From contig CAXHJY010001111.1 in NCBI GenBank assembly GCA_964016885.1, positions 1-55,459 on the forward strand: a stretch of 55,459 nucleotides of DNA, given 5' to 3'. Shown here piece after piece: positions 2,088-39,478 of the stretch. Each line of letters opens with the position of its first letter. Positions within the stretch are counted from its first letter, which is position 1. The notes under the pieces were generated by a model. The model saw nothing but the letters and a program-made list of their open reading frames with translations. It was not told the origin of the DNA and made no database searches. Made by a program: the position numbers and the translations under genes. The DNA is from Eledone cirrhosa. Taxonomy: Eukaryota.

Positions 2088-2383
2088 GTATTAGTTATAC
2101 TATTTATGGTTATGTAAGCACAAAACCTTAAGCAGTTGTAAGTATTTTACACACACCCTAAATAGTGGTAGGCAGTAATGTATTACTACCTTATTACCAG
2201 TAAGTTAAGTAGCTCAATGTAAAAACATCAGATGATTTACAGAGCAGTTATATGAAATATAAGAATCAAATTTTGTAATGAATGTTGACCCACAATGTTT
2301 GAATATGTATCAATGTTTGAATATGTATTGGTATGTCTCTCGGCTGAAAAGGAGGTCATATAACTGTCCATGCATTAATAAAT

Positions 2384-2430
2384 TGCTCCGAAGAATCCAA
2401 ACCTCGGTTTGGAGGAAACAGCTGTAAGCA
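2384..2430 (+). ncRNA. Minimal hammerhead-ribozyme-like motif (variant core), copy 1
   Basis: tgct-CCGAAGA-a-tccaaac(ctcg)gtttgga-g-GAAA-c-agct-GTA-agca: stem I tgct/agca, 7-bp stem II, palindromic stem III ACAGCTGT, GUA cleavage triplet. Confidence 0.65.
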
Positions 2431-2654
2431 CAATAATGTTTTGAACAGTTCTTTGATTCTTATATTTCATATATATATATATAAATATTATATATATAAT
2501 ATATATATATATATATAAATATTATATATATATATATTATATATATAATATTTATATATATATATATATTATATATATTATATATATAATATATATATAT
2601 ATATAATATATATATAAAATATATATATAAAATATATATGTAATATATATATAT

Positions 2655-2839
2655 AATTGTTTCTACTTTAGGCACAAGGCCAGCAATTAGCCAGTGCATT
2701 ACTGGTACTTTATTTTATCGACCCCGTAAGGATGAAAGGCAAAGTCAACCTCGGCGGGATTTGAACTCAGATCGTAAAGGGACGTAACTATGCTTCAAAG
2801 CATGGCGTCCGACCCTCTACCGATACTGCCAATCCACCG
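2655..2839 (-). mobile_element. tRNA-derived SINE, family A
   Basis: A box tggcagtatcgg, B box gagttcaaatc and core gcctttcatccttacggggtcgataaaataaagtaccag (resembles the MetaSINE core, from memory). About ten copies or fragments in the window. Confidence 0.85.
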
Positions 2840-2909
<70 letters not shown>

Positions 2910-2942
2910 TACATGAATCAAAGTTCAGTTTAAATCATTTAT

Positions 2943-2991
2943 TTGCTTACAATTGTTTCCTCCAAACCGAGGTTTGGATTCTTCGGAGTAA
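2943..2991 (-). ncRNA. Minimal hammerhead-ribozyme-like motif (variant core), copy 2
   Basis: Minus strand: tact-CCGAAGA-a-tccaaac(ctcg)gtttgga-g-GAAA-c-aatt-GTA-agca; palindromic stem III ACAATTGT. Confidence 0.6.
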
Positions 2992-3724
2992 CTATTTAGT
3001 GATTTTTTACATACTTGACCTCCTTTTCAACACAAGAGACATATAAAAACATATGTATATATTGACCCACAGTGGGTTGACATCCATCATAATAATATAG
3101 CATGGCAACTTACATATAAAGGTTAGTCATATTAAAGGACAAAATTAAAGTTAAAATTAAAATAAAAATAAAAATAAAACATCGGCAGTTTATGAAGATA
3201 AAGCAAGAGGAAAGTTTAGAGTCGTCAGTGTATGAAACAGTCTCACGTGCGGCATGCACGCGTGTCTTATTTATACAGCATTATAGTGCGGCAGATTGTT
3301 ACATGTAAAACAAGCAGTTAAAGCAGGCAATCAATAGCATCATGGGGGCTGTATTGTTAAAGCATTTTTCACACACACCTGTACGATATATAAGCCCGTT
3401 TGTAGAGAAATATCAAAAATATTACAAATGAGAAGCAAAACAGCACCACTGTCCTCGCACCCACCACCACTCACACAATCCAGGAAACGCAATTTATAGA
3501 CTACATGTCCATCACACAATGCACGATGATTCAACATTGGGTGCCTGGTGAACCATGTTATAAATTATAGCTTGTCGTTCCTTAATTCGATTCATAGATC
3601 AGGTTGCTACAAACAACCTGACCTCAATTAAAGTTTTGTTTTTACTGTTTATGTATGTGCAATGTTCTTGTTGTGTTGCAGTGGTTTTTGTCTGCTGTTC
3701 TTGTGGGAGCTTTCGTTTTGTTGT

Positions 3725-15694: not shown

Positions 15695-18600
15695 GTTGTT
15701 GTTTAGCCCCAGGTCAGACCTAAATTAGAAAGAGGTATGATCAAATATGTACCAGCCATAACCATCCTGTCTTTATCATTGGTGTTGTTTAGCCCCAGGT
15801 CAGACCTAAATTAGAAAGAGGTATGATCAAATATGTATCAGCCATAACCATCCTGTCTTTATCATTGGTGTTGTTTAGCCCCAGGTCAGACCTAAATTAG
15901 AAAGAGGTATGATCAAATATGTATCAGCCATAACCATCCTGTCTTTATCATTGGTGTTGTTTAGCCCCAGGTCAGACCTAAATTAGAAAGAGGTATGATC
16001 AAATATGTACCAGCCATAACCATCCTGTCTTTATCATTGGTGTTGTTTAGCCCCAGGTCAGACCTAAATTAGAAAGAGGTATGATCAAATATGTACCAGC
16101 CATAACCATCCTGTCTTTATCATTGGTGTTGTTTAGCCCCAGGTCAGACCTAAATTAGAAAGAGGTATGATCAAATATGTACCAGCCATAACCATCCTGT
16201 CTTTATCATTGGTGTTGTTTAGCCCCAGGTCAGACCTAAATTAGAAAGAGGTATGATCAAATATGTATCAGCCATAACCATCCTGTCTTTATCATTGGTG
16301 TTGTTTAGCCCCAGGTCAGACCTAAATTAGAAAGAGGTATGATCAAATATGTATCAGCCATAACCATCCTGTCTTTATCATTGGTGTTGTTTAGCCCCAG
16401 GTCAGACCTAAATTAGAAAGAGGTATGATCAAATATGTACCAGCCATAACCATCCTGTCTTTATCATTGGTGTTGTTTAGCCCCAGGTCAGACCTAAATT
16501 AGAAAGAGGTATGATCAAATATGTACCAGCCATAACCATCCTGTCTTTATCATTGGTGTTGTTTAGCCCAAAGTCAGGCCTAAATTAGAAAGAGGTATGA
16601 TCAAATATGTACCAGCCATAACCATCCTGTCTTTATCATTAGTGTTGTTTAGCCCCAGGTCAGACCTAAATTAGAAAGAAGTATGATCAAATATGTACCA
16701 GCCATAACCATCCTGTCTTTATCATAGTATTGTTTAGCCCAAAGTCAGGCCTAAATTAGAAAGAGTTATGATCAAATATGTACCAGCCATAACCATCCTG
16801 TCTTTATCATTGGTGTTGTTTAGCCCCAGGTCAGACCTAAATTAGAAAGAGGTATGATCAAATATGTACCAGCCATAACCATCCTGTCTTTATCATTGGT
16901 GTTGTTTAGCCCAAAGTCAGGCCTAAATTAGAAAGAGGTATGATCAAATATGTACCAGCCATAACCATCCTGTCTTTATCATTGGTGTTGTTTAGCCCCA
17001 GGTCAGACCTAAATTAGAAAGAGGTATGATCAAATATGTACCAGCCATAACCATCCTGTCTTTATCATTGGTGTTGTTTAGCCCAGGTCAGACCTAAATT
17101 AGAAAGAGGTATGATCAAATATGTACCAGCCATAACCATCCTGTCTTTATCATTGGTGTTGTTTAGCCCAGGTCAGACCTAAATTAGAAAGAGGTATGAT
17201 CAAATATGTACCAGCCATAACCATCCTGTCTTTATCATTGGTGTTGTTTAGCCCAGGTCAGACCTAAATTAGAAAGAGGTATGATCAAATATGTACCAGC
17301 CATAACCATCCTGTCTTTATCATTGGTGTTGTTTAGCCCAAAGTCAGGCCTAAATTAGAAAGAGGTATGATCAAATATGTACCAGCCATAACCATCCTGT
17401 CTTTATCATTGGTGTTGTTTAGCCCCAGGTCAGACCTAAATTAGAAAGAGGTATGATCAAATATGTACCAGCCATAACCATCCTGTCTTTATCATTGGTG
17501 TTGTTTAGCCCAAAGTCAGGCCTAAATTAGAAAGAGATATGATCAAATATGTACCAGCCATAACCATCCTGTCTTTATCATTGTGTTGTTTACCCCCAGG
17601 TCAGACCTAAATTAGAAAGAGGTATGATCAAATATGTACCAGCCATAACCATCCTGTCTTTATCATTGTGTTGTTTAGCCCAAAGTCAGGCCTAAATTAG
17701 AAAGAGGTATGATCAAATATGTACCAGCCATAACCATCCTGTCTTTATCATTGTGTTGTTTACCCCCAGGTCAGGCCTAAATTAGAAAGAGGTATGATCA
17801 AATATGTACCAGCCATAACCATCCTGTCTTTATCATTGGTGCTGTTTAGCCCCAGGTCAGACCTAAATTAGAAAGAGGTATGATCAAATATGTACCAGCC
17901 ATAACCATCCTGTCTTTATCATTGTGTTGTTTAGCCCAAAGTCAGGCCTAAATTAGAAAGAGGTATGATCAAATATGTACCAGCTATGACCATCCTGTCT
18001 TTATCATTGGTGTTGTTTAGCCCAGGTCAGGCCTAAATTAGAAAGAGGTATGATCAAATATGTACCAGCCATAACCATCCTGTCTTTATCATTGGTGTTG
18101 TTTAGCCCCAGGTCAGGCCTAAATTAGAAAGAGGTATGATCAAATATGTACCAGCCATAACCATCCTGTCTTTATCATTGGTGTTGTTTACCCCCAGGTC
18201 AGACCTAAATTAGAAAGAGGTATGATCAAATATGTACCAGCCATAACCATCCTGTCTTTATCATTGGTGTTGTTTAGCCCCAGGTCAGACCTAAATTAGA
18301 AAGAGGTATGATCAAATATGTACCAGCCATAACCATCCTGTCTTTATCATTGGTGTTGTTTACCCCCAGGTCAGACCTAAATTAGAAAGAGGTATGATCA
18401 AATATGTACCAGCCATAACCATCCTGTCTTTATCATTGGTGTTGTTTAGCCCAAAGTCAGGCCTAAATTAGAAAGAGGTATGATCAAATATGTACCAGCC
18501 ATAACCATCCTGTCTTTATCATTAGTGTTGTTTAGCCCCAGGTCAGACCTAAATTAGAAAGAAGTATGATCAAATATGTACCAGCCATAACCATCCTGTC

Positions 18601-20820
18601 TTTATCATAGTATTGTTTAGCCCAAAGTCAGGCCTAAATTAGAAAGAGTTATGATCAAATATGTACCAGCCATAACCATCCTGTCTTTATCATTGGTGTT
18701 GTTTAGCCCCAGGTCAGACCTAAATTAGAAAGAGGTATGATCAAATATGTACCAGCCATAACCATCCTGTCTTTATCATTGGTGTTGTTTAGCCCAAAGT
18801 CAGGCCTAAATTAGAAAGAGGTATGATCAAATATGTACCAGCCATAACCATCCTGTCTTTATCATTGTGTTGTTTAGCCCAAAGTCAGGCCTAAATTAGA
18901 AAGAGGTATGATCAAATATGTACCAGCCATAACCATCCTGTCTTTATCATTGGTGTTGTTTAGCCCAGGTCAGACCTAAATTAGAAAGAGGTATGATCAA
19001 ATATGTACCAGCCATAACCATCCTGTCTTTATCATTGGTGTTGTTTAGCCCAAAGTCAGGCCTAAATTAGAAAGAGGTATGATCAAATATGTACCAGCCA
19101 TAACCATCCTGTCTTTATCATTGGTGTTGTTTAGCCCCAGGTCAGACCTAAATTAGAAAGAGGTATGATCAAATATGTACCAGCCATAACCATCCTGTCT
19201 TTATCATTGGTGTTGTTTAGCCCAAAGTCAGGCCTAAATTAGAAAGAGATATGATCAAATATGTACCAGCCATAACCATCCTGTCTTTATCATTGTGTTG
19301 TTTACCCCCAGGTCAGACCTAAATTAGAAAGAGGTATGATCAAATATGTACCAGCCATAACCATCCTGTCTTTATCATTGTGTTGTTTAGCCCAAAGTCA
19401 GGCCTAAATTAGAAAGAGGTATGATCAAATATGTACCAGCCATAACCATCCTGTCTTTATCATTGTGTTGTTTACCCCCAGGTCAGGCCTAAATTAGAAA
19501 GAGGTATGATCAAATATGTACCAGCCATAACCATCCTGTCTTTATCATTGGTGCTGTTTAGCCCCAGGTCAGACCTAAATTAGAAAGAGGTATGATCAAA
19601 TATGTACCAGCCATAACCATCCTGTCTTTATCATTGGTGTTGTTTAGCCCAAAGTCAGGCCTAAATTAGAAAGAGGTATGATCAAATATGTACCAGCTAT
19701 GACCATCCTGTCTTTATCATTGGTGTTGTTTAGCCCAGGTCAGGCCTAAATTAGAAAGAGGTATGATCAAATATGTACCAGCCATAACCATCCTGTCTTT
19801 ATCATTGGTGTTGTTTAGCCCCAGGTCAGGCCTAAATTAGAAAGAGGTATGATCAAATATGTACCAGCCATAACCATCCTGTCTTTATCATTGGTGTTGT
19901 TTACCCCCAGGTCAGACCTAAATTAGAAAGAGGTATGATCAAATATGTACCAGCCATAACCATCCTGTCTTTATCATTGGTGTTGTTTAGCCCCAGGTCA
20001 GACCTAAATTAGAAAGAGGTATGATCAAATATGTACCAGCCATAACCATCCTGTCTTTATCATTGGTGTTGTTTACCCCCAGGTCAGACCTAAATTAGAA
20101 AGAGGTATGATCAAATATGTTCCAGCCATAACCATCCTGTCTTTATCATTGTGTTGTTTAGCCCAAAGTCAGGCCTAAATTAGAAAGAGGTATGATCAAA
20201 TATGTACCAGCCATAACCATCCTGTCTTTATCATTGGTGTTGTTTAGCCCAAAGTCAGGCCTAAATTAGAAAGAGGTATGATCAAATATGTACCAGCCAT
20301 AACCATCCTGTCTTTATCATTGGTGTTGTTTAGCCCCAGGTCAGACCTAAATTAGAAAGAGGTATGATCAAATATGTACCAGCCATAACCATCCTAGTCT
20401 TTATCATTGGTGTTGTTTAGCCCAAAGTCAGGCCTAAATTAGAAAGAGGTATGATCAAATATGTACCAGCCATAACCCTCCTGTCTTTATCATTGGTGTT
20501 GTTTAGCCCCAGGTCAGACCTAAATTAGAAAGAGGTATGATCAAATATGTACCAGCCATAACCATCCTGTCTTTATCATTGGTGTTGTTTAGCCCAAAGT
20601 CAGGCCTAAATTAGAAAGAGGTATGATCAAATATGTACCAGCCATAACCATCCTGTCTTTATCATTGGTGTTGTTTAGCCCCAGGTCAGACCTAAATTAG
20701 AAAGAGTCATGATCAAATATGTACCAGCCATAACCATCCTGTCTTTATCATTGTGTTGTTTAGCCCCAGGTCAGACCTAAATTAGAAAGAGTCATGATCA
20801 AATATGTACCAGCTATGACC
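15695..20820. repeat. 86-bp tandem satellite, ~60 copies
   Basis: Unit ggtgttgtttagccccaggtcagacctaaattagaaagaggtatgatcaaatatgtaccagccataaccatcctgtctttatcatt (period 15781 to 15867). Diverged copies continue to about 20955. Confidence 0.97.
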
Positions 20821-20957
20821 ACTCTGTTTTTGTTGCTGTTGCTGAACCTTAGGTCAACACTAAATTAGCAAGACTATAATATAAAGTGTACCAGCTGCAA
20901 CCATCTTCTCTGTTTGATGGGTATGATTTAGCCCCGAGTCAGTCATAATTTAGCAGC

Positions 20958-21090: not shown

Positions 21091-24000
21091 TGTATAGTGG
21101 TGTTGGTGGGGAGTATGGTGGTGTTGGTGGGGTGTATAGTGGTGTTGGTGGGGAGTATAGGGGTGTTGGAGGGGAGTATGGTGGTGTTGGTGGGGAGTAT
21201 AGTGGTGTTGGTGGGGTGTATAGTGGTGTTGGTGGGGAGTATGGTGGTGTTGGAGGGGAGTATGGTGGTGTTGGTGGGGAGTATAGTGGTGTTGGTGGGG
21301 TGTATAGTGGTGTTGGTGGGGTGTATAGTGGTGTTGGTGGGGAGTATAGTGGTGTTGGTGGGGAGTATAGTGGTGTTGGAGGGGAGTATAGTGGTGTTGG
21401 TGGGGTGTATAGTGGTGTTGGTGGGGAGTATGGTGGTGTTGGAGGGGAGTATGGTGGTGTTGGTGGGGAGTATAATGGTGTTGGTGGGGTGTATAGTGGT
21501 GTTGGTGGGGTGTATAGTGGTGTTGGTGGGGAGTATAGTGGTGTTGGAGGGGAGTATGGTGGTGTTGGTGGGGAGTATAGTGGTGTTGGTGGGGAGTATA
21601 GTGGTGTTGGTGGGGAGTATAGTGGTGTTGGAGGGGAGTATGGTGGTGTTGGTGGGGAGTATAGTGGTGTTGGTGGGGTGTATAGTGGTGTTGGTGGGGA
21701 GTATAGTGGTGTTGGTGGGGTGTATGGTGGTGTTGGTGGGGTGTATGGTGGTGTTGGAGGGGAGTATGGTGGTGTTGGTGGGGAGTATAATGGTGTTGGT
21801 GGGGAGTATAGTGGTGTTGGTGGGGAGTATAGTGGTGTTGGAGGGGAGTATAGTGGTGTTAGTGGGGAGTATAGTGGTGTTGGTGGGGTGTATAGTGGTG
21901 TTGGTGGGGTGTATAGTGGTGTTGGTGGGGAGTATAGTGGTGTTGGTGGGGTGTATAGTGGTGTTGGTGGGGAGTATAGTGGTGTTGGTGGGGAGTATGG
22001 TGGTGTTAGTGGGGAGTATAGTGGTGTTGGTGGGGTGTATAGTGGTGTTGGTGGGGAGTATAGTGGTGTTGGTGGGGAGTATAGTGGTGTTGGAGGGGAG
22101 TATAGTGGTGTTGGTGGGGAGTATAGTGGTGTTGGTGGGGAGTATAGTGGTGTTGGTGGGGAGTATGGTGGTGTTGGAGGGGAGTATGGTGGTGTTGGTG
22201 GGGAGTATAATGGTGTTGGTGGGGAGTATAGTGGTGTTGGTGGGGTGTATAGTGGTGTTGGTGGGGTGTATGGTGGTGTTGGAGGGGAGTATGGTGGTGT
22301 TGGTGGGGAGTATAATGGTGTTGGTGGGGAGTATAGTGGTGTTGGTGGGGAGTATAGTGGTGTTGGTGGGGAGTATAGTGGTGTTGGTGGGGTGTATAGT
22401 GGTGTTGGTGGGGAGTATAGTGGTGTTGGTGGGGAGTATAGTGGTGTTGGAGGGGAGTATAGTGGTATTGGTGGGGAGTATAATGGTGTTGGTGGGGAGT
22501 ATAGTGGTGTTGGTGGGGTGTATAGTGGTGTTGGTGGGGTGTATGGTGGTGTTGGAGGGGAGTATGGTGGTGTTGGTGGGGAGTATAATGGTGTTGGTGG
22601 GGAGTATAGTGGTGTTGGTGGGGAGTATAGTGGTGTTGGTGGGGTGTATAGTGGTGTTGGTGGGGAGTATAGTGGTGTTGGTGGGGAGTATGGTGGTGTT
22701 GGAGGGGAGTATGGTGGTGTTGGTGGGGAGTATAATGGTGTTGGTGGGGAGTATAGTGGTGTTGGTGGGGAGTATAGTGGTGTTGGAGGGGAGTATGGTG
22801 GTGTTAGTGGGGAGTATAGTGGTGTTGGTGGGGTGTATAGTGGTGTTGGTGGGGAGTATAGTGGTGTTGGAGGGGAGTATAGTGGTGTTGGTGGGGAGTA
22901 TGGTGGTGTTGGAGGGGAGTATGGTGGTGTTGGTGGGGAGTATAGTGGTGTTGGTGGGGTGTATAGTGGTGTTGGTGGGGAGTATGGTGGTGTTGGTGGG
23001 GAGTATAGTGGTGTTGGTGGGGAGTATAGTGGTGTTGGTGGGGAGTATAATGGTGTTGGTGGGGTGTATAGTGGTGTTGGTGGGGAGTATGGTGGTGTTG
23101 GTGGGGTGTATAGTGGTGTTGGTGGGGAGTATGGTGGTGTTGGTGGGGAGTATGGTGGTGTTGGTGGGGAGTATGGTGGTGTTGGTGGGGAGTATAGTGG
23201 TGTTGGTGGGGAGTATAATGGTGTTGGTGGGGAGTATAGTGGTGTTGGTGGGGTGTATAGTGGTGTTGGTGGGGAGTATGGTGGTGTTGGTGGGGAGTAT
23301 GGTGGTGTTGGTGGGGAGTATAGTGGTGTTGGTGGGGAGTATAATGGTGTTGGTGGGGAGTATAGTGGTATTGGTGGGGTGTATAGTGGTGTTGGTGGGG
23401 AGTATGGTGGTGTTGGAGGGGAGTATAATGGTGTTGGTGGGGAGTATAGTGGTGTTGGTGGGGAGTATAGTGGTGTTGGTGGGGAGTATGGTGGTGTTGG
23501 AGGGGAGTATGGTGGTGTTGGTGGGGAGTATAGTGGTGTTGGTGGGGTGTATAGTGGTGTTGGTGGGGAGTATGGTGGTGTTGGTGGGGAGTATAGTGGT
23601 GTTGGTGGGGAGTATGGTGGTGTTGGAGGGGAGTATAGTGGTGTTGGTGGGGAGTAGTGTGGTGTTGGTGGGGGGTATGGTGGTGTTGGAGGGGAGTATA
23701 GTGGTGTTGGTGGGGAGTATGGTGGTGTTGGAGGGGAGTATAGTGGTGTTGGTGGGGAGTATAGTGGTGTTGGTGGGGAGTATGGTGGTGTTGGAGGGGA
23801 GTATGGTGGTGTTGGTGGGGTATATAGTGGTGTTGGTGGGGAGTATAGTGGTGTTGGTGGGGAGTATGGTGGTGTTGGAGGGGAGTATAGTGGTGTTGGT
23901 GGGGAGTATAGTGGTGTTGGTGGGGAGTATGGTGGTGTTGGAGGGGAGTATGGTGGTGTTGGTGGGGTATATAGTGGTGTTGGTGGGGAGTATAGTGGTG

Positions 24001-27000
24001 TTGGTGGGGTGTATAGTGGTGTTGGTGGGGAGTATGGTGGTGTTGGTGGGGAGTATAGTGGTGTTGGTGGGGAGTATGGTGGTGTTGGAGGGGAGTATAG
24101 TGGTGTTGGTGGGGTGTATAGTGGTGTTGGTGGGGTGTATAGTGGTGTTGGTGGGGAGTATGGTGGTGTTGGTGGGGAGTATGGTGGTGTTGGTGGGGAG
24201 TATGGTGGTGTTGGTGGGGAGTATGGTGGTGTTGGAGGGGAGTATGGTGGTGTTGGTGGGGAGTATAGTGGTGTTGGTGGGGAGTATGGTGGTGTTGGTG
24301 GGGAGTATGGTGGTGTTGGAGGGGAGTATGGTGGTGTTGGTGGGGAGTATAGTGGTGTTGGTGGGGAGTATGGTGGTGTTGGTGGGGAGTATGGTGGTGT
24401 TGGTGGGGAGTATGGTGGTGTTGGAGGGGAGTATGGTGGTGTTGGTGGGGAGTATAGTGGTGTTGGTGGGGTGTATAGTGGTGTTGGTGGGGAGTATGGT
24501 GGTGTTGGTGGGGAGTATAGTGGTGTTGGTGGGGAGTATGGTGGTGTTGGAGGGGAGTATAGTGGTGTTGGTGGGGTGTATAGTGGTGTTGGTGGGGAGT
24601 ATGGTGGTGTTGGAGGGGAGTATGGTGGTGTTGGTGGGGAGTATAGTGGTGTTGGAGGGGAGTATAGTGGTGTTGGTGGGGAGTATAGTGGTGTTGGTGG
24701 GGAGTATGGTGGTGTTGGTGGGGAGTATAGTGGTGTTGGTGGGGTGTATAGTGGTGTTGGTGGGGAGTATGGTGGTGTTGGTGGGGAGTATAGTGGTGTT
24801 GGTGGGGAGTATAGTGGTGTTGGTGGGGAGTATAGTGGTGTTGGAGGGGAGTATAATGGTGTTGGTGGGGTGTATAGTGGTGTTGGAGGGGTGTATAGTG
24901 GTGTTGGTGGGGAGTATAGTGGTGTTGGAGGGGAGTATGGTGGTGTTGGTGGGGAGTATAGTGGTGTTGGTGGGGAGTATAGTGGTGTTGGTGGGGAGTA
25001 TAGTGGTGTTGGAGGGGAGTATAATGGTGTTGGTGGGGTGTATAGTGGTGTTGGAGGGGAGTATAGTGGTGTTGGTGGGGTGTATAGTGGTGTTGGTGGG
25101 GAGTATAGTGGTGTTGGAGGGGAGTATAGTGGTGTTGGTGGGGAGTATAGTGGTGTTGGAGGGGAGTATGGTGGTGTTGGTGGGGAGTATAGTGGTGTTG
25201 GTGGGGAGTATAGTGGTGTTGGTGGGGAGTATGGTGGTGTTGGAGGGGAGTATGGTGGTGTTGGTGGGGAGTATAGTGGTGTTGGTGGGGAGTATGGTGG
25301 TGTTGGTGGGGAGTATAGTGGTGTTGGTGGGGAGTATAGTGGTGTTGGAGGGGAGTATAATGGTGTTGGTGGGGAGTATAGTGGTGTTGGTGGGGAGTAT
25401 AGTGGTGTTGGTGGGGTGTATAGTGGTGTTGGTGGGGAGTATAGTGGTGTTGGAGGGGAGTATGGTGGTGTTGGTGGGGAGTATAGTGGTGTTGGTGGGG
25501 AGTATAGTGGTGTTGGTGGGGAGTATAGTGGTGTTGGTGGGGAGTATGGTGGTGTTGGAGGGGAGTATGGTGGTGTTGGTGGGGAGTATAATGGTGTTGG
25601 TGGGGAGTATAGTGGTGTTGGTGGGGAGTATAGTGGTGTTGGAGGGGAGTATGGTGGTGTTAGTGGGGAGTATAGTGGTGTTGGTGGGGTGTATGGTGGT
25701 GTTGGTGGGGAGTATGGTGGTGTTGGTGGGGAGTATAGTGGTGTTGGTGGGGAGTATAGTGGTGTTGGTGGGGAGTATGGTGGTGTTGGAGGGGAGTATG
25801 GTGGTGTTGGTGGGGAGTATAATGGTGTTGGTGGGGAGTATAGTGGTGTTGGTGGGGAGTATAGTGGTGTTGGAGGGGAGTATGGTGGTGTTGGTGGGGA
25901 GTATAGTGGTGTTGGTGGGGTGTATAGTGGTGTTGGTGGGGAGTATAGTGGTGTTGGTGGGGTGTATAGTGGTGTTGGTGGGGAGTATGGTGGTGTTGGA
26001 GGGGAGTATGGTGGTGTTGGTGGGGAGTATAATGGTGTTGGTGGGGAGTATAGTGGTGTTGGTGGGGAGTATAGTGGTGTTGGTGGGGTGTATGGTGGTG
26101 TTGGTGGGGTGTATGGTGGTGTTGGTGGGGAGTATAGTGGTGGTGGTGGGGAGTATAGTGGTGTTGGTGGGGAGTATAATGGTGTTGGTGGGGAGTATAG
26201 TGGTGTTGGAGGGGAGTATGGTGGTGTTGGAGGGGAGTATGGTGGTGTTGGTGGGGAGTATAATGGTGTTAGTGGGGAGTATAGTGGTGTTGGTGGGGAG
26301 TATAGTGGTGTTGGTGGGGAGTATAGTGGTGCTGGGGTGTACAGTGGTGTTGGTGGGGAGTATAGTGGTGTTGGAGGGGAGTATGGTGGTGTTGGTGGGG
26401 AGTATAGTGGTGTTGGTGGGGTGTATAGTGGTGTTGGTGGGGAGTATGGTGGTGTTGGTGGGGAGTATGGTGGTGTTGGAGGGGAGTATGGTGGTGTTGG
26501 TGAGGAGTATAATGGTGTTGGTGGGGTGTATAGTGGTGTTTGTGGGGAGTATGGTGGTGTTGGACGGGAGTATAGTGGTGTTGGTGGGGTGTATAGTGGT
26601 GTTGGTGGGGTGTATAGTGGTGTTGGTGGGGAGTATGGTGGTGTTGGTGGGGTGTATAGTGGTGTTGGTGGGGAGTATGGTGGTGTTGGAGGGGAGTATG
26701 GTGGTGGTGGAGGGGAGTATAGTGGTGTTGGTGGGGAGTATAGTGGTGTTGGTGGGGAGTATAGTGGTGTTGGAGGGGAGAATGGTGGTGTTGGGGGGGT
26801 GTATAGTGGTGTTGGTGGGGAGTATAGTGGTGTTGGTGGGGAGTATAGTGGTGTTGGTGGGGAGTATAGTGGTGTTGGAGGGGAGTATAGTGGTGTTGGT
26901 GGGGAGTATAGTGGTGTTGGTGGGGAGTATAGTGGTGTTGGTGGGGAGTATAGTGGTGTTGGTGGGGAGTATAGTGGTGTTGGAGGGGAGTATAGTGGTG

Positions 27001-30000
27001 TTGGTGGGGAGTATGGTGGTGTTGGTGGGGAGTATAGTGGTGTTGGTGGGGAGTATAGTGGTGTTGGTGGGGAGTATAGTGGTGTTGGTGGGGAGTATAG
27101 TGGTGTTGGTGGGGAGTATAGTGGTGTTGGTGGGGAGTATAGTGGTGTTGGAGGGGAGTATAGTGGTGTTGGTGGGGAGTATAGTGGTGTTGGTGGGGAG
27201 TATAGTGGTGTTGGTGGGGAGTATAGTGGTGTTGGAGGGGAGTATAGTGGTGTTGGTGGGGAGTATGGTGGTGTTGGTGGGGAGTATAGTGGTGTTGGTG
27301 GGGAGTATAGTGGTGTTGGAGGGGAGTATAGTGGTGTTGGTGGGGAGTATGGTGGTGTTGGTGGGGAGTATAGTGGTGTTGGTGGGGAGTATAGTGGTGT
27401 TGGTGGGGAGTATGGTGGTGTTGGTGGGGAGTATAGTGGTGTTGGTGGGGAGTATAGTGGTGTTGGAGGGGAGTATAGTGGTGTTGGTGGGGAGTATAGT
27501 GGTGTTGGTGGGGAGTATAGTGGTGTTGGTGGGGAGTATAGTGGTGTTGGTGGGGAGTATAGTGGTGTTGGTGGGGAGTATAGTGGTGTTGGAGGGGAGT
27601 ATGGTGGTGTTGGAGGGGAGTATGGTGGTGTTGGTGGGGAGTATAGTGGTGTTGGTGGGGAGTATAGTGGTGTTGGTGGGGTGTATAGTGGTGTTGGTGG
27701 GGAGTATAGTGGTGTTGGAGGGGAGTATAATGGTGTTGGTGGGGAGTATGGTGGTGTTGGAGGGGAGTATAGTGGTGTTGGTGGGGAGTATAGTGGTGTT
27801 GGTGGGGTGTATAGTGGTGTTGGTGGGGAGTATAGTGGTGTTGGAGGGGAGTATGGTGGTGTTGGTGGGGAGTATAGTGGTGTTGGTGGGGAGTATAGTG
27901 GTGTTGGTGGGGAGTATAGTGGTGTTGGTGGGGAGTATGGTGGTGTTGGAGGGGAGTATGGTGGTGTTGGTGGGGAGTATAATGGTGTTGGTGGGGAGTA
28001 TAGTGGTGTTGGTGGGGAGTATAGTGGTGTTGGAGGGGAGTATGGTGGTGTTAGTGGGGAGTATAGTGGTGTTGGTGGGGTGTATGGTGGTGTTGGTGGG
28101 GAGTATGGTGGTGTTGGTGGGGAGTATAGTGGTGTTGGTGGGGAGTATAGTGGTGTTGGTGGGGAGTATGGTGGTGTTGGAGGGGAGTATGGTGGTGTTG
28201 GTGGGGAGTATAATGGTGTTGGTGGGGAGTATAGTGGTGTTGGTGGGGAGTATAGTGGTGTTGGAGGGGAGTATGGTGGTGTTGGTGGGGAGTATAGTGG
28301 TGTTGGTGGGGTGTATAGTGGTGTTGGTGGGGAGTATAGTGGTGTTGGTGGGGTGTATAGTGGTGTTGGTGGGGAGTATGGTGGTGTTGGAGGGGAGTAT
28401 GGTGGTGTTGGTGGGGAGTATAATGGTGTTGGTGGGGAGTATAGTGGTGTTGGTGGGGGGTATAGTGGTGTTGGTGGGGTGTATGGTGGTGTTGGTGGGG
28501 TGTATGGTGGTGTTGGTGGGGAGTATAGTGGTGGTGGTGGGGAGTATAGTGGTGTTGGTGGGGAGTATAATGGTGTTGGTGGGAAGTATAGTGGTGTTGG
28601 AGGGGAGTATGGTGGTGTTGGAGGGGAGTATGGTGGTGTTGGTGGGGAGTATAATGGTGTTAGTGGGAAGTATAGTGGTGTTGGTGGGGAGTATAGTGGT
28701 GTTGGTGGGGAGTATAGTGGTGCTGGGGTGTACAGTGGTGTTGGTGGGGTGTATAGTGGTGTTGGAGGGGAGTATGGTGGTGTTGGTGGGGAGTATAGTG
28801 GTGTTGGTGGGGTGTATAGTGGTGTTGGTGGGGAGTATGGTGGTGTTGGTGGGGAGTATGGTGGTGTTGGAGGGGAGTATGGTGGTGTTGGTGAGGAGTA
28901 TAATGGTGTTGGTGGGGTGTATAGTGGTGTTTGTGGGGAGTATGGTGGTGTTGGACGGGAGTATAGTGGTGTTGGTGGGGTGTATAGTGGTGTTGGTGGG
29001 GAGTATGGTGGTGTTGGTGGGGTGTATAGTGGTGTTGGTGGGGAGTATGGTGGTGTTGGAGGGGAGTATGGTGGTGGTGGAGGGGAGTATAGTGGTGTTG
29101 GTGGGGAGTATAGTGGTGTTGGTGGGGAGTATAGTGGTGTTGGAGGGGAGAATGGTGGTGTTGGAGGGGTGTATAGTGGTGTTGGTGGGGAGTATAGTGG
29201 TGTTGGTGGGGAGTATAGTGGTGTTGGTGGGGAGTATAGTGGTGTTGGTGGGGAGTATAGTGGTGTTGGAGGGGAGTATAGTGGTGTTGGTGGGGAGTAT
29301 AGTGGTGTTGGTGGGGAGTATAGTGGTGTTGGTGGGGAGTATAGTGGTGTTGGTGGGGAGTATAGTGGTGTTGGTGGGGAGTATAGTGGTGTTGGAGGGG
29401 AGTATAGTGGTGTTGGTGGGGAGTATGGTGGTGTTGGTGGGGAGTATAGTGGTGTTGGTGGGGAGTATAGTGGTGTTGGTGGGGAGTATAGTGGTGTTGG
29501 TGGGGAGTATAGTGGTGTTGGTGGGGAGTATAGTGGTGTTGGTGGGGAGTATAGTGGTGTTGGTGGGGAGTATAGTGGTGTTGGAGGGGAGTATAGTGGT
29601 GTTGGTGGGGAGTATAGTGGTGTTGGTGGGGAGTATAGTGGTGTTGGTGGGGAGTATAGTGGTGTTGGAGGGGAGTATAGTGGTGTTGGTGGGGAGTATG
29701 GTGGTGTTGGTGGGGAGTATAGTGGTGTTGGTGGGGAGTATAGTGGTGTTGGAGGGGAGTATAGTGGTGTTGGTGGGGAGTATGGTGGTGTTGGTGGGGA
29801 GTATAGTGGTGTTGGTGGGGAGTATAGTGGTGTTGGTGGGGAGTATGGTGGTGTTGGTGGGGAGTATAGTGGTGTTGGTGGGGAGTATAGTGGTGTTGGA
29901 GGGGAGTATAGTGGTGTTGGTGGGGAGTATAGTGGTGTTGGTGGGGAGTATAGTGGTGTTGGTGGGGAGTATAGTGGTGTTGGTGGGGAGTATAGTGGTG

Positions 30001-33000
30001 TTGGTGGGGAGTATAGTGGTGTTGGAGGGGAGTATGGTGGTGTTGGAGGGGAGTATGGTGGTGTTGGTGGGGAGTATAGTGGTGTTGGTGGGGAGTATAG
30101 TGGTGTTGGTGGGGTGTATAGTGGTGTTGGTGGGGAGTATAGTGGTGGTGGTGGGGAGTATAGTGGTGTTGGTGGGGAGTATAGTGGTGTTGGAGGGGAG
30201 TATAGTGGTGTTGGTGGGGAGTATAGTGGTGTTGGAGGGGAGTATGGTGGTGGTGGTGGGGAGTATAGTGGTGTTGGTGGGGTGTATAGTGGTGTTGGTG
30301 GGGAGTATGGTGGTGTTGGTGGGGAGTATAGTGGTGTTGGAGGGGAGTATAGTGGTGTTGGTGGGGAGTATAGTGGTGTTGGAGGGGAGTATGGTGGTGG
30401 TGGTGGGGAGTATAGTGGTGGTGGTGGGGAGTATGGTGGTGTTGGTGGGGAGTATAGTGGTGTTGGTGGGGAGTATAGTGGTGTTGGAGGGGAGTATAGT
30501 GGTGTTGGTGGGGAGTATAGTGGTGTTGGTGGGGAGTATAGTGGTGTTGGAGGGGAGTATAGTGGTGTTGGAGGGGTGTATGGTGGTGTTGGTGGGGAGT
30601 ATAGTGGTGGTGGTGGGGAGTTTGGTGGTGTTGGTGGGGAGTATAGTGGTGTTGGTGGGGAGTATAGTGGTGTTGGAGGGGAGTATAGTGGTGTTGGAGG
30701 GGAGTATAGTGGTGTTGGTGGGGTGTATAGTGGTGTTGGTGGGGAGTATAGTGGTGTTGGTGGGGAGTATAGTGGTGTTGGTGGGGAGTATGGTGGTGTT
30801 GGTGGGGAGTATAGTGGTGTTGGTGGGGTGTATAGTGGTGTTGGTGGGGAGTATGGTGGTGTTGGTGGGGAGTATAGTGGTGTTGGAGGGGAGTATAGTG
30901 GTGTTGGTGGGGAGTATAGTGGTGTTGGAGGGGAGTATGGTGGTGGTGGTGGGGAGTATAGTGGTGGTGGTGGGGAGTATGGTGGTGTTGGTGGGGAGTA
31001 TAGTGGTGTTGGTGGGGAGTATAGTGGTGTTGGAGGGGAGTATAGTGGTGTTGGTGGGGAGTATAGTGGTGTTGGTGGGGAGTATAGTGGTGTTGGAGGG
31101 GAGTATAGTGGTGTTGGAGGGGAGTATAATGGTGTTGGTGGGGTGTATAGTGGTGTTGGTGGGGAGTATAGTGGTGTTGGAGGGGAGTATGGTGGTGTTG
31201 GTGGGGAGTATAGTGGTGTTGGTGGGGAGTATAGTGGTGTTGGTGGGGAGTATAGTGGTGTTGGTGGGGAGTATAGTGGTGTTGGAGGGGAGTATAGTGG
31301 TGTTGGTGGGGAGTATAGTGGTGTTGGTGGGGAGTATAGTGGTGTTGGAGGGGAGTATAGTGGTGTTGGTGGGGAGTATAATGGTGTTGGAGGGGAGTAT
31401 GGTGGTGTTGGTGGGGAGTATAGTGGTGTTGGTGGGGAGTATAGTGGTGTTGGAGGGGAGTATGGTGGTGTTGGTGGGGAGTATAGTGGTGTTGGTGGGG
31501 TGTATAGTGGTGTTGGTGTGGAGTATGGTGGTGTTGGAGGGGAGTATGGTGGTGTTGGTGGGGAGTATAATGGTGTTGGTGGGGAGTATAGTGGTGTTGG
31601 TGGGGAGTATAGTGGTGTTGGAGGGGAGTATGGTGGTGTTGGTGGGGAGTATAGTGGTGTTGGTGGGGTGTATAGTGGTGTTGGTGGGGAGTATGGTGGT
31701 GTTGGAGGGGTGTATAGTGGTGTTGGTGGGGAGTATGGTGGTGTTGGAGGGGTGTATAGTGGTGTTGGTGGGGTGTATAGTGGTGTTGGTGGGGAGTATA
31801 GTGGTGTTGGTGGGGAGTATAGTGGTGTTGGTGGGGTGTATAGTGGTGTTGGTGGGGAGTATAGTGGTGTTGGTGGGGAGTATAGTGGTGTTGGTGGGGA
31901 GTATAGTGGTGTTGGTGGGGAGTATAGTGGTGTTGGTGGGGAGTATAGTGGTGTTGGTGGGGAGTATAGTGGTGTTGGTGGGGAGTATAGTGGTGTTGGT
32001 GGGGAGTATAGTGGTGTTGGTGGGGAGTATAGTGGTGTTGGTGGGGTGTATAGTGGTGTTGGAGGAGAGTATGGTGGTGTTGGTGGGGAGTATAGTGGTG
32101 TTGGTGGGGTGTATAGTGGTGTTGGAGGGGAGTATGGTGGTGTTGGTGGGGAGTATAGTGGTGGTGGTGGGGAGTATAGTGGTGTTGGTGGGGAGTATAA
32201 TGGTGTTGGTGGGGAGTATAGTGGTGTTGGAGGGGAGTATGGTGGTGTTGGAGGGGAGTATGGTGGTGTTGGTGGGGAGTATAATGGTGTTGGTGGGGAG
32301 TATAGTGGTGTTGGTGGGGAGTATAGTGGTGTTGGTGGGGAGTATAGTGGTGCTGGGGTGTATAGTGGTGTTGGTGGGGAGTATAGTGGTGTTGGAGGGG
32401 AGTATGGTGGTGTTGGTGGGGAGTATAGTGGTGTTGGTGGGGTGTATAGTGGTGTTGGTGGGGAGTATGGTGGTGTTGGTGGGGAGTATGGTGGTGTTGG
32501 AGGGGAGTATGGTGGTGTTGGTGAGGAGTATAATGGTGTTGGTGGGGTGTATAGTGGTGTTTGTGGGGAGTATGGTGGTGTTGGAGGGGAGTATAGTGGT
32601 GTTGGTGGGGTGTATAGTGGTGTTGGTGGGGAGTATGGTGGTGTTGGAGGGGAGTATGGTGGTGGTGGAGGGGAGTATAATGGTGTTGGTGGGGAGTATA
32701 GTGGTGTTGGAGGGGAGAATGGTGGTGTTGGTGGGGAGTATAGTGGTGTTGGTGGGGAGTATAGTGGTGTTGGTGGGGAGTATAGTGGTGTTGGTGGGGA
32801 GTATAGTGGTGTTGGTGGGGAGTATGGTGGTGTTGGTGGGGAGTATAGTGGTGTTGGTGAGGAGTATAGTGGTGTTGGAGGGGAGTATAGTGGTGTTGGT
32901 GGGGAGTATAGTGGTGTTGGAGGGGAGTATAGTGGTGTTGGTGGGGAGTATGGTGGTGTTGGTGGGGAGTATAGTGGTGTTGGTGGGGAGTATAGTGGTG

Positions 33001-36000
33001 TTGGAGGGGAGTATAGTGGTGTTGGAGGGGAGAATGGTGGTGTTGGTGGGGAGTATAGTGGTGTTGGTGGGGAGTATAGTGGTGTTGGTGGGGAGTATAG
33101 TGGTGTTGGTGGGGAGTATGGTGGTGTTGGAGGGGAGTATAGTGGTGTTGGTGGGGAGTATAGTGGTGTTGGTGGGGAGTATAGTGGTGTTGGTGGGGAG
33201 TATAGTGGTGTTGGTGGGGAGTATAGTGGTGTTGGAGGGGTGTATAGTGGTGTTGGAGGGGTGTATAGTGGTGTTGGTGGGGTGTATAGTGGTGTTGGAG
33301 GGGTGTATAGTGGTGTTGGAGGGGTGTATAGTGGTGTTGGTGGGGTGTATAGTGGTGTTGGTGGGGAGTATAGTGGTGTTGGAGGGGAGTATAGTGGTGT
33401 TGGTGGGGAGTATGGTGGTGTTGGTGGGGAGTATGGTGGTGTTGGTGGGGAGTATAGTGGTGTTGGAGGGGAGTATAGTGGTGTTGGAGGGGAGTATGGT
33501 GGTGTTGGTGGGGAGTATGGTGGTGTTGGAGGGGAGTATGGTGGTGTTGGTGGGGAGTATGGTGGTGTTGGTGGGGAGTATGGTGGTGTTGGTGGGGAGT
33601 ATAGTGGTGTTGGTGGGGAGTATAATGGTGTTGGTGGGGTGTATAGTGGTGTTGGTGGGGAGTATAGTGGTGTTGGAGGGGTGTATGGTGGTGTTGGAGG
33701 GGAGTATAGTGGTGTTGGTGGGGAGTATGGTGGTGTTGGAGGGGAGTATGGTGGTGTTGGTGGGGAGTATGGTGGTGTTGGTGGGGAGTATGGTGGTGTT
33801 GGTGGGGAGTATAGTGGTGTTGGAGGGGAGTATAGTGGTGTTGGAGGGGAGTATGGTGGTGTTGGAGGGGAGTATAATGGTGTTGGTGGGGAGTATAGTG
33901 GTGTTGGAGGGGAGAATGGTGGTGTTGGTGGGGAGTATAGTGGTGTTGGTGGGGAGTATAGTGGTGTTGGTGGGGAGTATAGTGGTGTTGGAGGGGAGTA
34001 TAGTGGTGTTGGAGGGGAGTATAGTGGTGTTGGTGGGGTGTATAGTGGTGTTGGAGGGGAGTATAGTGGTGTTGGTGGGGTGTATAGTGGTGTTGGAGGG
34101 GAGTATGGTGGTGGTGGAGGGGAGTATAGTGGTGTTGGTGGGGAGTATAATGGTGTTGGTGGGGTGTATAGTGGTATTGGTGGGGGGTATGGTGGTGTTG
34201 GAGGGGAGTATAGTGGTGTTGGTGGGGAGTATAGTGGTGTTGGAGGGGAGTATAGTGGTGTTGGTGGGGAGTATAGTGGTGTTGGAGGGGAGTATGGTGG
34301 TGTTGGTGGGGAGTATAGTGGTGTTGGTGGGGAGTATGGTGGTGTTGGTGGGGAGTATAGTGGTGTTGGTGGGGAGTATAGTGGTGTTGGTGGGGAGTAT
34401 AGTGGTGTTGGTGGGGAGTATAGTGGTGTTGGTGATGAGTATAGTGGTGTTGGTGGGGAGTATAGTGGTGTTGGTGGGGAGTATGGTGGTGTTGGAGGGG
34501 AGTATAGTGGTGTTGGTGGGGAGTATGGTGGTGTTCGTGGGGACTATAGTGGTGTTGGTGGGGAGTATGGTGGTGTTGGTGGGGAGTATAGTGGTGTTGG
34601 TGGGGAGTATAGTGGTGTTGGTGGGGAGTATAGTGGTGTTGGTGGGGAGTATAGTGGTGTTGGTGGGGAGTATGGTGGTGTTGGTGGGGAGTATGGTGGT
34701 GTTGGTGGGGAGTATAGTGGTGTTGGTGGGGAGTATAGTGGTGTTGGTGGGGAGTATAGTGGTGTTGGTGGGGAGTATGGTGGTGTTGGTGGGGAGTATG
34801 GTGGTGTTGGTGGGGAGTATAGTGGTGTTGGTGGGGAGTATAGTGGTGTTGGTGGGGAGTATGGTGGTGTTGGTGGGGAGTATAGTGGTATTGGTGGGGA
34901 GTATGGTGGTGTTGGTGGGGAGTATAATGGTATTGGTGGGGAGTATAGTGGTGTTGGAGGGGAGTATAGTGGTGTTGGTGGGGAGTAAACTGGTGTTGGA
35001 GGGGAGTATAGTGGTGTTGGTGGGGAGTATAATGGTGTTGGTGGGGTGTATAGTGGTGTTGGTGGGGAGTATAGTGGTGTTGGAGGGGAGTATAGTGGTG
35101 TTGGAGGGGAGTATAGTGGTGTTGGTGGGGAGTATAGTGGTATTGGTGGGGAGTATGGTGGTGTTGGTGGGGAGTATAGTGGTATTGGTGGGGAGTATAG
35201 TGGTGTTGGAGGGGAGTATAGTGGTGTTGGTGGGGAGTAAACTGGTGTTGGAGGGGAGTATAGTGGTGTTGGTGGGGAGTATAATGGTGTTGGTGGGGTG
35301 TATAGTGGTGTTGGTGGGGAGTATAGTGGTGTTGGAGGGGAGTATAGTGGTGTTGGAGGGGAGTATAGTGGTGTTGGTGGGGAGTATAGTGGTGGTGGTG
35401 GGGAGTATAGTGGTGTTGGAAGGGAGTATACTGGTGTTGGAAGGGAGTATAGTGGTGTTGGTGGGGAGTATAGTGGTGTTGGTGGGGAGTATGGTGGTGT
35501 TGGTGGGGTGTATAGTGGTGTTGGAGGGGAGTATGGTGGTGTTGGAGGGGAGTATGGTGGTGGTGGTGGGGAGTATAGTGGTGGTGGTGGGGAGTATAGT
35601 GGTGTTGGTGGGGAGTATGGTGGTGTTGGTGGGGAGTATGGTGGTGTTGGTGGGGAGTATAGTGGTGTTGGTGGGGTGTATAGTGGTGTTGGAGGGGAGT
35701 ATGGTGGTGTTGGTGGGGAGTATAGTGGTGTTGGTGGCGAGTATAGTGGTGTTGGTGGCGAGTATAGTGGTGTTGGTGGGGAGTATAATGGTGTTGGTGG
35801 GGTGTATAGTGGTGTTGGAGGGGAGTATGGTGGTGTTGGTGGGGAGCATAGTGGTGGTGGGGTGTATAGCGGTGTTGGTGGGGAGTATGGTGGTGTTGGT
35901 GGGGTGTATAGTGGTGTTGGTGGGGAGTATAGTGGTGGTGGGGTGTATAGTGGTGTGTGTGGGGAGTATAGTGGTGTTGGTGGGGAGTATGGTGGTGTTG

Positions 36001-36890
36001 GTGGGGTGTATAATGGTGTTGGGGAGTATAGCGGTGTTGGTGGGGAGTATAGTGGTGTTAGGTGAGGAGTATAGCGGTGGTGATGGTGCGTATAGTGGTG
36101 TTGGTGGGGTGTATAGTGGTGTTGGGGAGTATAGCGGTGTTAGTGGGGAGTATAGTGGTGGTGAGTATAGTGGTGGTGGTGGGGAGTATAGTGGTGTTGG
36201 TGGGGAGTATAGCGGTGGTGGTGGTGAGTATAGTGGTGGTGGTGGGGTGTATAGTGGTGTTGGGGAGTATAGCGGTGTTAGTGGGGAGTATAGTGGTGGT
36301 GAGTATAGTGGTGGTGGTGAGGTGTATAGTGGTGGTGGTGGGGAGTATAGCGGTGTTGGTGGGGAGTATATTGGTGGGGAGTATAGTGGTGGTGGTGAGG
36401 TGTATAGTGGTGGTGGTGGGGAGTATAGCGGTGTTAGTGGGGAGTATAGTGGTGGGGAGTATAGTGGTGGTGGTGAGGTGTATAGTGGTGGTGGTGGGGA
36501 TTATAGCGGTGTTGGTGGGGAGTATAGTGGTGTTGGTGGGGAGTATGGTGGTGTTGGTGGGGAGTATAGTGGTGTTGGTGGGGAGTATAGCGGTGTTGAT
36601 GGGGAGTATAGCGGTGGTGGTGGGGTGTATAGTGGTGTTGGGGAGTATAGCGGTGTTAGTGGGGAGTATAGTGGTGGTGGTGAGGTGTATAGTGGTGGTG
36701 GTGGTGGGGAGCATAGCGGTGTTGGTGGGGAGTATAGTGGTGTTAGTGGGGAGTATAGTGGTGTTAGTGGGGAGTATAGTGGTGGTGAGTATAGTGGTGG
36801 TGGTGGGGTGTATATTGGTGGTGGTGGGGAGTATAGTGGTGTTGGTGGGGAGTATAGTGGTGTTGGTGGAGAGTATAGTGGTGGTGGTGT
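21091..36890. repeat. G-rich 21-bp minisatellite, ~750 copies
   Basis: Consensus gtatagtggtgttggtgggga, homogeneous to about 35850 and then degenerating toward (GGT)n. Confidence 0.98.
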
Positions 36891-37790: not shown

Positions 37791-38384
37791 AAGCACCATA
37801 CACGCACACACAGTCACAAACCATGCTTTTCCCACCAAGCCTACACCATCCATTTGCACCACATGCTATAGTCATTATTTTAACATCTTTTATAGAACAT
37901 CCAAGGAATTTCACTGTAATACCATCAAATATACTTCTCTCTAGCTTCTACTGTAATCAAACCATCCAAGCTGTTCATCTGCTGAAGCTAACACTCATCT
38001 GGAATCAATCACTTGAAAATCAATAACATATTTCCAAATCAATCAGGTGGTTTATAAACAATACTATTCTGTCTATTGATGCTGAATGGTTAAAAAGTTT
38101 GCTGTTCAATCAAGTAGTCCTGGGTTCAAGACCAGCACTGCTATTCTGGCCAACTAGAGAACCATGTAGAGTGCAGACCTCAGAAAGTTGCATTACTGAA
38201 CCTGTAACCAGGGCTGGTGCTACCTTTAAAACCAACTAGGCAGCTACCTAAGATGCAGACCTCAGAGAAACACATTATTGAACCTTATAGGATAATAGTT
38301 TTATATAAATTTGTATAATCAAATAAATTATATAATAATCTCCTGCAATCAATAAATAAATTGCTAAACATCTTTGCTCTGTAG

Positions 38385-38857: not shown

Positions 38858-39478
38858 CCAGGGCTGGTGCTACCATTAAGGCCAACTAGGCAACCACCTA
38901 GGGTGCAGAACTAAGAGAGGTGCATTACTAAACCTTAAAGAATCACAGTTTTATATATATTTGTATAGTTATGTAATAAACAACATAAAGCAATTATTTC
39001 ATTTACCAGTGGTTTCTTAAAAGCAAAAGCATTTTGCTTTCAATCATCAGAATGAAAAAATCCTGGTGTATTTATTGGCGTTGGATTTTAAAAACAAAAA
39101 TATAATCTATATGAAAGTGAGGCTGGAAAAGTAATATTTGTATAGTTAAATTAAACGTAAAATAATTTCCTGTGGTCAGTAAATACAACACGAGATATCT
39201 TTACAACATAGCAGTGTTTTGGAAATATGTAAAGTGGTGAAGTGTTGTATGGTGTTATAACCTGCCACATGGTTTCACATAGATCAGTGAGAACTGTGTA
39301 GTGTAAAATACAGGCTTCGTAATTTTATGTGTGGTCAGAACAAGATTTATCAAAATCTAAGTTCTTCAGCTTACCAAACTCTAAATTGAAATTATTTGAT
39401 GTGGGAGATTGGGGTCATAATTTACAGAAGGGGGCACACATTATAAGGTTAGCCTAAATACCTAGACACCAGCCCAGT
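38858..39478. mobile_element. Possible hAT-type non-autonomous DNA transposon
   Basis: cagggctggtgcta ... tagacaccagcccag imperfect TIR; the left end is also repeated at about 38130 and 38208. Confidence 0.35.

Follow-up and report, generated by a model that had tools for sequence, protein, structure and literature searches.

Type I hammerheads near the 3′ end of the element are described for Hydra-clade Penelope-like elements (PLEs) (Craig 2021, PMC8557442), and the repeats analysed here share both this topology and this position. Penelope-1_SK, Penelope-2_NV, Hydra-1_aMil and the Penelope_HM families are comparison examples in that paper; its File S2 is used here as 26 rows that represent 25 Hydra-clade families, counted by hand. 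PLEs typically show inverted 5′-truncated partners, according to the same source. Dimer action and low activity in vitro are reported for minimal PLE hammerheads (Cervera and de la Pena 2014, PMC4209133), and the hammerhead of the Poseidon PLE PAc from Anolis requires protein (Frangieh et al. 2024, PMC11167929). Purified PAc cuts AT-rich DNA and extends both strands, and its reverse transcription (RT) starts at two sites internal to the RNA (PMC11167929). The literature consulted calls the role of PLE hammerheads unclear: a part in precursor processing, a need for protein help and mere hitchhiking are all conceivable.

GUA is a natural hammerhead cleavage site, somewhat slower. In a deep mutational scan, as far as its data are used here, core mutants, those of CUGA included, had low activity except for the C3-G8 swap. 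A viroid variant in which U4 is replaced by C has considerably lower activity in vitro, which is nevertheless sufficient in vivo (Ambros and Flores 1998, cited in PMC3088659).

We analysed a stretch of 55,459 nucleotides (the window) of animal DNA that is AT-rich and full of repeats, among them long (TA)n arrays, tRNA-like sequences and two satellites. A repeat family in it combines a Hydra-type hammerhead build with a core that reads CCGAAGA.

Three repeat copies at TA arrays

The window holds exactly three copies of the family; BLAST and a profile of the three found no fourth. Copy 1 (2268–2468, + strand) is a 5′-truncated 3′ end (pLTR/3′ UTR) that ends at the (TA)n array 2469–2655. Copy 2, of an older subfamily, occupies 2905 to about 3265 on the − strand, with the array 2840–2904 at its 3′ end, and copy 3 runs from about 45738 to 46096 (+ strand), with (TA)n from 46097. 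Pairwise identity is 76–78% between copies 1 and 2, 71% between 1 and 3, and 66–70% between 2 and 3. In all three, the TA run begins at nearly the same distance past the predicted cleavage site (42, 43 and 43 nt), which makes this a common 3′ end point; a loose contig end at 2464 in sequencing run X5 likewise enters TA. BLAST and profile searches and these distances confirm what an initial annotation had proposed, namely three diverged copies that share a motif and end at (TA)n. Its shared length of 180–270 bp is too short, as copies 2 and 3 can be aligned over about 360 bp.

Copy 1 has a partner. The segment 2090–2270 (− strand) lies head to head with it at 2268–2270 and ends at the (TA)n array 747–2087. 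Its first 22 nt duplicate 2452–2473 identically, an X2 contig passes from 2383–2451 (+) directly into 2270–2100 (−) (joint 2270/2451), and loose contig ends in X5, at 2270 and 2253, agree with this joint. For these reasons we regard the segment, which the initial annotation had overlooked, as the element's own downstream continuation, in inverted orientation. X5 depth over 2100–2270 equals that of copy 1 and is high. The whole is a complex insertion of PLE type, with an inverted 5′-truncated partner, an extension beyond the usual end and (TA)n at both outer ends.

The inverted segment contains a hairpin of the form GCTC-stem-loop-stem-TT-GAGC (2212–2245, − strand), 50 nt past the predicted cleavage site in element order. 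On its own its fold is weak (z −1.06). By eye, the same shape occurs in four of the six new Hydra consensus ends of Craig 2021 (PMC8557442): it lies 38–47 nt past cleavage in Hydra-2_Amil, Hydra-2_Ajap and Hydra-1_Crog (one mismatch), is found at the 5′ start of Hydra-1_Ajap, and is absent from the Hydra-1_Amil and Hydra-1_Obim consensus sequences as given there. Being common to Hydra consensus ends by this visual comparison, the hairpin is a candidate RT-initiation signal.

Several other repeats surround the copies. Pieces of LINE reading frames (endonuclease-like and C-terminal parts) at 3732 to about 4250 (−) and 523–750 (−) flank the TA arrays and hammerhead copies; by their motifs they are probably of RTE type. 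The satellite region (21092–36889 and 15697–20821) consists of two adjoining satellites, one with a 21-bp unit (755 copies) that is extremely skewed between strands and contains very long frames free of stops, the other with an 86-bp unit (60 copies). tRNA-like sequences at 47020–47092 (−), which ARAGORN calls tRNA-Ser AGA, and at 46371–46428 (+) are probably the heads of short interspersed repeats. The short interspersed repeats of the window presumably resemble those of octopus. Between 45648 and 48575, a TA-rich unit of ~28 nt (TGTATGTGTATGTTTACA-type) forms numerous short arrays interspersed with (TA)n, which also border copy 3 on either side.

The motif and its core C

Every copy presents, in order, a 4-bp stem I, CCGAAGA, a 7-bp hairpin with a single extra letter on either side, GAAAC, a palindromic insert, GTA and the stem I partner. 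In copy 1 the motif spans 2384–2430 (+), with stem I at 2384–2387/2427–2430, the core CCGAAGA at 2388–2394 (C3 at 2388, C4 at 2389), an A2395/G2414 mismatch, stem II at 2396–2413, GAAA at 2415–2418 and the palindromic stem III ACAGCTGT at 2418–2425; cleavage is predicted after A2426. The copy 2 motif (2990–2944, −) has C3 at 2986, an A-C mismatch in stem I and predicted cleavage after A2948. That of copy 3 (46001–46057, +) has C3 at 46005, a 10-nt duplication in stem II, absent from the initial annotation, and predicted cleavage after A46053. As the initial annotation had noticed, the insert changes from AGCT in copy 1 to AATT in copies 2 and 3 and stays palindromic in all three.

The motif is conserved above its surroundings. 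All 15 core letters are invariant in the three copies, versus 64 of 110 flank columns (P about 3e–4 at the flank rate), and 38 of the 47 motif positions are identical (Fisher test, P 0.005 against flanks). C3, G5, A6, G8, A9, G12, A13, A14, A15.1, U16.1 and H17 are present throughout. The U4 of the CUGA turn is absent, C4 taking its place in every copy; given C4, the motif is a hammerhead-like variant and no canonical member of the class. Standard pairs fill 44 of 45 pair cells, versus 24–43% in slid controls, the sole break being the A-C pair of copy 2. Palindrome retention, on which the initial annotation had placed weight, holds in all three copies. Covariation is a different matter: because these three sequences contain one two-sided pair change only (AGCT/AATT), and 281 of 500 shuffles equal it, it is not shown statistically. 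What these data establish is thus that the motif is conserved; two-sided change is limited to one pair.

A relaxed hammerhead descriptor matched five sites in the whole window: the three copies, a canonical motif at 39050 (−) and a weak site at 49427 (−). Its chance rate is 0.03 per dinucleotide shuffle (200 shuffles of the 28-kb non-satellite part). We rejected the 49427 match as chance: it spans an inversion junction and has a 2-bp stem I. The canonical motif (38997–39057, −; z −2.23) has type I topology and the Hydra build: a CTGATGA core, a 12-bp stem II, an ACCA-C-TGGT stem III, a GUA site and a 7-bp stem I. It belongs to a different family, and no similarity to the CCGAAGA family was listed for it. 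A short TA run lies about 45 nt beyond it, and a related flank occurs at 38254–38375 without the motif. Rfam gave no hammerhead match on the window or on 2250–3250; since it misses this canonical motif too, its silence is uninformative.

We followed C4 through public sequencing runs. Of 24 listed runs, 15 (11 studies) contain all or part of the initial 181 bases of copy 1, and there is no RNA run among the listed ones that carry the start of copy 1. Contigs of X1, X2 and X5 were aligned to 2100–2466 at 80% likeness; a raw-read run, X17, yielded no aligned reads and carries no weight. X5 yielded 727 aligned contigs (195 at ≥99% identity, 138 at <90%), from an organism that may differ from that of the window. 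Among these 727 contigs no change reached 2% of depth within 2383–2433, and the flank positions 2205, 2206, 2209, 2223, 2344, 2364 and 2434 were variable, up to 67%; the depth in X5 stems mostly from one young subfamily, that of copy 1, and Logan contigs lose rare variants. X1 and X2 contributed three contigs each, whose core is without listed change, and no T at 2389 was listed in any of the three runs. Loose ends in X1 and X5 that are similar to the flanks of copies 2 and 3 run into the same core; hence at least two subfamilies carry C4. The pair C4G5 is a CpG in DNA with a CpG observed/expected ratio of 0.40, and plain decay would therefore be expected to bring U4 back. Because all three copies have C4, the core is unvaried in the runs and reversion to U4 would be easy, C4 is the family's master state and not decay. 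The initial annotation was right to call the U4-to-C variant fixed, and right that a strict CUGANGA search would miss a motif that lacks U4.

Searches elsewhere for this combination were negative within their scope. A metagenome scan with the family pattern gave 0 matches. A looser CCGAAGA pattern (58 of 64 parts) gave at least 119; among the matches listed, 0 of 119 had stem I, stem II and the palindrome together, and none had family likeness save one 34-nt AT-rich match. In viral scans, 3-bp stems I and II occurred in 1 of 120 C4 and 1 of 120 U4 matches listed, which is chance level. Words specific to the family are absent from the Craig 2021 supplement (PMC8557442); bare CCGAAGA occurs 17 times in it, and the two occurrences inspected are both apparently coding DNA.

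Probable origin of the repeats and possible activity of the motif

A PLE reading frame lies elsewhere in the window (50221–52147, −, between TA arrays). It is 5′-truncated and frameshifted, covers the RT thumb and GIY-YIG region, and has the CxCX5C linker that marks the Hydra clade. The ORF has 7964 relatives at E 0.001, and Pfam gave nothing above cut-off in it or in seven relatives. We rejected it as parent of the repeats, as it belongs to a different family and has no DNA similarity to copies 1–3. A 127-nt part of its 5′ region is repeated, identical and inverted, at 49276–49402 (+). Its 3′ UTR contains CTGATGA, then an 8-bp hairpin, then AAAACGTC; the CTGATGA/AAAACGTC stretch looks like a decayed hammerhead that has lost G12. 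Together, the CxCX5C frame and the canonical Hydra-build hammerhead place the Hydra clade in this genome. For the CCGAAGA family no ORF is linked, and its putative clade assignment is thus purely one of RNA architecture and insertion pattern.

We suggest that the repeats are probably the 5′-truncated 3′ ends (pLTR region) of a PLE family of Hydra build, and that they reached (TA)n through target-primed reverse transcription. The data show the shared 3′ end point, the TA targets, the inverted partner, the Hydra-type hammerhead architecture and the family-wide C4. In such a model a PLE RT/GIY-YIG protein, own or borrowed, would nick (TA)n, and reverse transcription would start within the RNA, where the GCTC/GAGC hairpin has its base, about 43 nt past the hammerhead. 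At 2090–2468 the second strand might have been primed about 160 nt further downstream, with the two truncated cDNAs then joined head to head. The hammerhead would be under purifying selection in the master copies and might act as a dimer through its 8-bp palindrome; we propose dimer action because a monomer cannot form a good stem III.

It is quite possible, and compatible with the PLE reading, that the family is a short, never-coding, non-autonomous element that stands alone and owes its mobility to Hydra-type proteins acting in trans, for example that at 50.2–52.1 kb; this is how the initial annotation read it, apart from the retrozyme label. Copies 2 and 3 remain alike, and non-coding, for at least 280 nt upstream of the core, the abundance in X5 is high, and the single ATG of 2090–2248 (−) lies within the hairpin. 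No ORF or PLE-protein match adjoins any copy (tblastn with 151 proteins and a profile of those of at least 450 aa), and so none of them lies next to the single frame expected of the Hydra clade, with RWK, DKT, a CxCX5C linker and GIY-YIG but no CCHH. However, the truncated copies are, by eye, barely longer than the published Hydra 3′ UTRs, and 5′ truncation is usual in PLE copies. The copies also bear no likeness to the 3′ end of the PLE ORF in the window, and the upstream DNA before 2268 in X1 and X2, different from that in the window, is visible for 30 letters only.

Whether the motif of the PLE-derived repeats cuts is a separate matter. The predicted probability of the hammerhead fold in a monomer is 0.002 for copy 1 and the same or less for copy 2, the z-score of the motif is weak (−1.32), and in the minimum free energy structure CUC pairs with GAG and the core does not form. 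The ACAGCTGT or ACAATTGT palindromes form intermolecular pairs in the predicted dimer, and again CUC is mispaired with GAG in place of stem I. On balance the motif is slightly more likely than not a slow cutter that would be assisted by dimerisation or protein and would cleave after GUA; a fold that has lost cleavage and acts as a structural signal is the less probable case. We favour the slow cutter because all catalytic letters are kept.

The non-cutting alternative, with the same PLE origin, holds that the motif is retained for protein binding, dimerisation or positioning of the RT start and that C4 drifted to fixation once catalysis was dispensable. Mutating the hammerhead of PAc does not abolish insertion in vitro, and RNA ends at the cleavage site were not found (PMC11167929); Naiads spread without a canonical hammerhead; U4C reduces activity (PMC3088659); and stem I is just 4 bp long and broken in copy 2. 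Against this, G8, G12, the C3-G8 pair, A15.1-U16.1 and H17 are kept in all three copies and unvaried in X5, a structural role alone would not obviously preserve all 15 core letters, and the viroid U4C variant cleaves enough in vivo (PMC3088659). In this full form we consider the alternative doubtful.

A non-LTR retrozyme, that is ~300-nt tandem units excised by hammerheads and circularised, would fit the type I hammerhead, the palindromic stem III and the lack of an ORF, and a 2026 preprint, in the part seen, derives retrozymes from PLE pLTRs. Retrozymes have canonical hammerheads in tandem repeats (PMC7229834), whereas the copies here are single and 5′-truncated with a fixed end point in (TA)n, so a retrozyme is very improbable; the window contains no tandem units of the element, for which reason, and given a motif of minimal PLE type, we do not retain the retrozyme-like label of the initial annotation. 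That the copies are decay products of a canonical CTGAAGA family, or that an ordinary repeat mimics the motif by chance, is largely refuted and barely credible: only three copies can be aligned base by base and Rfam matches no hammerhead, but it misses the canonical motif as well and so lends no support, C4 stands in all three copies although they are 22–34% apart, the descriptor's chance rate is low, and no T is listed at 2389 in X1, X2 or X5.

Besides the fold itself, an exact 11-nt complement connects the predicted cleavage site (2423–2433) with the downstream tail (2113–2123). Its length is reached by 3 of 1000 shuffles, in an observation made post hoc; the energy of the whole duplex between tail and cleavage site is unremarkable (826 of 1000 shuffles), and in copies 2 and 3 the antisense match is only 8 letters. 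As a lead only, this stretch may be an inhibitory pairing, or off-switch, over the cleavage site.

Tentatively, and with more doubt than attaches to the PLE origin, we can imagine that an animal retroelement of several subfamilies fixed the slowing U4C change and dropped loop III, and so became strictly dimer-dependent, C4 being kept, in the face of easy CpG reversion, as a slow, protein-triggered or non-cutting hammerhead was favoured; the antisense tail may be its off-switch. If so, the family would exemplify in nature a hammerhead whose activity has been lowered or that has become a structural signal. A family that keeps the fold and the dimer palindrome and yet has fixed an activity-lowering letter is a natural test of the need for the ribozyme. 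It permits a direct comparison of C4 with U4 and of monomer with dimer, with and without PLE protein, and the canonical motif of the window can serve as control.

Comparison with described hammerheads

The Hydra rows of Craig 2021 (PMC8557442) share much of the build described here. Several have a 4-bp stem III of ACAG/CTGT or ACAA/TTGT, and both forms occur in the CCGAAGA copies; 11 of the 25 families cut after A, and the cleavage predicted for our family is after GUA. The extra letters after A9 and before GAA, often unpaired in the Hydra rows, are common to the CCGAAGA motif, (TA)n is the target of nearly all Hydra families, and by eye the GCTC…GAGC hairpin lies 38–50 nt past cleavage in Hydra consensus ends and in our element alike. 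The position 10.1/11.1 is unpaired in 15 of the 25 families, as it is here, so this mismatch, pointed out by the initial annotation, is not new; the pair is A-G or C-U in the CCGAAGA copies and U-U in the Hydra rows. There are further differences. C4 is found in 0 of the 26 rows, all of which have U4; the stem III loop is 1–3 nt long in them, whereas our family has a loopless pure palindrome; the CCGAAGA copies lack an attached ORF; and by eye the family differs in sequence from Hydra-1_Obim.

With the minimal hammerheads of metazoan PLEs (PMC4209133) the family shares a long stem II, a short stem I and a palindromic stem III, as well as dispersed single motifs, truncated copies and predicted dimer action with low activity. 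The proposal of the initial annotation that the fold is hammerhead-like, minimal, of type I and of the PLE kind, with a dimer-type palindrome, is supported. The consensus of that study is CUGANGAH with G10.1-C11.1, and its core variant is U3-A8; C4 occurs in 0 of the 56 rows of its Fig. S3, all of which have U4, versus its fixation in our family. We also compared related literature in the parts available (PMC6765202, PMC3907566, PMC3376415, PMC2837043). In paper searches, which covered listings and the openings of abstracts, a C4 core was nowhere reported for an animal retroelement; Lunse et al. 2017, which deals with small hammerhead variants of PLEs, may contain such cases. CUGANGA-anchored searches, as in Craig 2021 (PMC8557442), would undercount ribozyme-like motifs of this kind in animal genomes.

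PAc (PMC11167929) is a model for AT-rich targeting, for RT initiation within the RNA downstream of the hammerhead, for priming on both strands and for a protein-assisted hammerhead. It belongs to a different clade, its ORF begins inside the hammerhead, and its RT starts are 30–40 nt apart, versus the about 160 nt that we infer for the CCGAAGA element. Animal non-LTR retrozymes (Cervera and de la Pena 2020, PMC7229834) have a type I hammerhead in a non-coding repeat, as here, but their units stand in tandem, their hammerheads are canonical and they give circular RNAs, whereas the CCGAAGA copies are single, truncated and anchored at TA.

The change at position 4 has a precedent in the viroid U4C hammerhead, which shows the same core change (Perreault 2011, PMC3088659), and U4C as such, also pointed out by the initial annotation, is therefore already described in nature. 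The viroid form is a sequence variant of a plant RNA replicon, whereas here the change is the fixed state of an animal retroelement of high copy number, in a fold that is minimal and of dimer type. Judged from the sequences compared, what is new is a U4-to-C core together with a loopless stem III, both fixed in a high-copy animal family.
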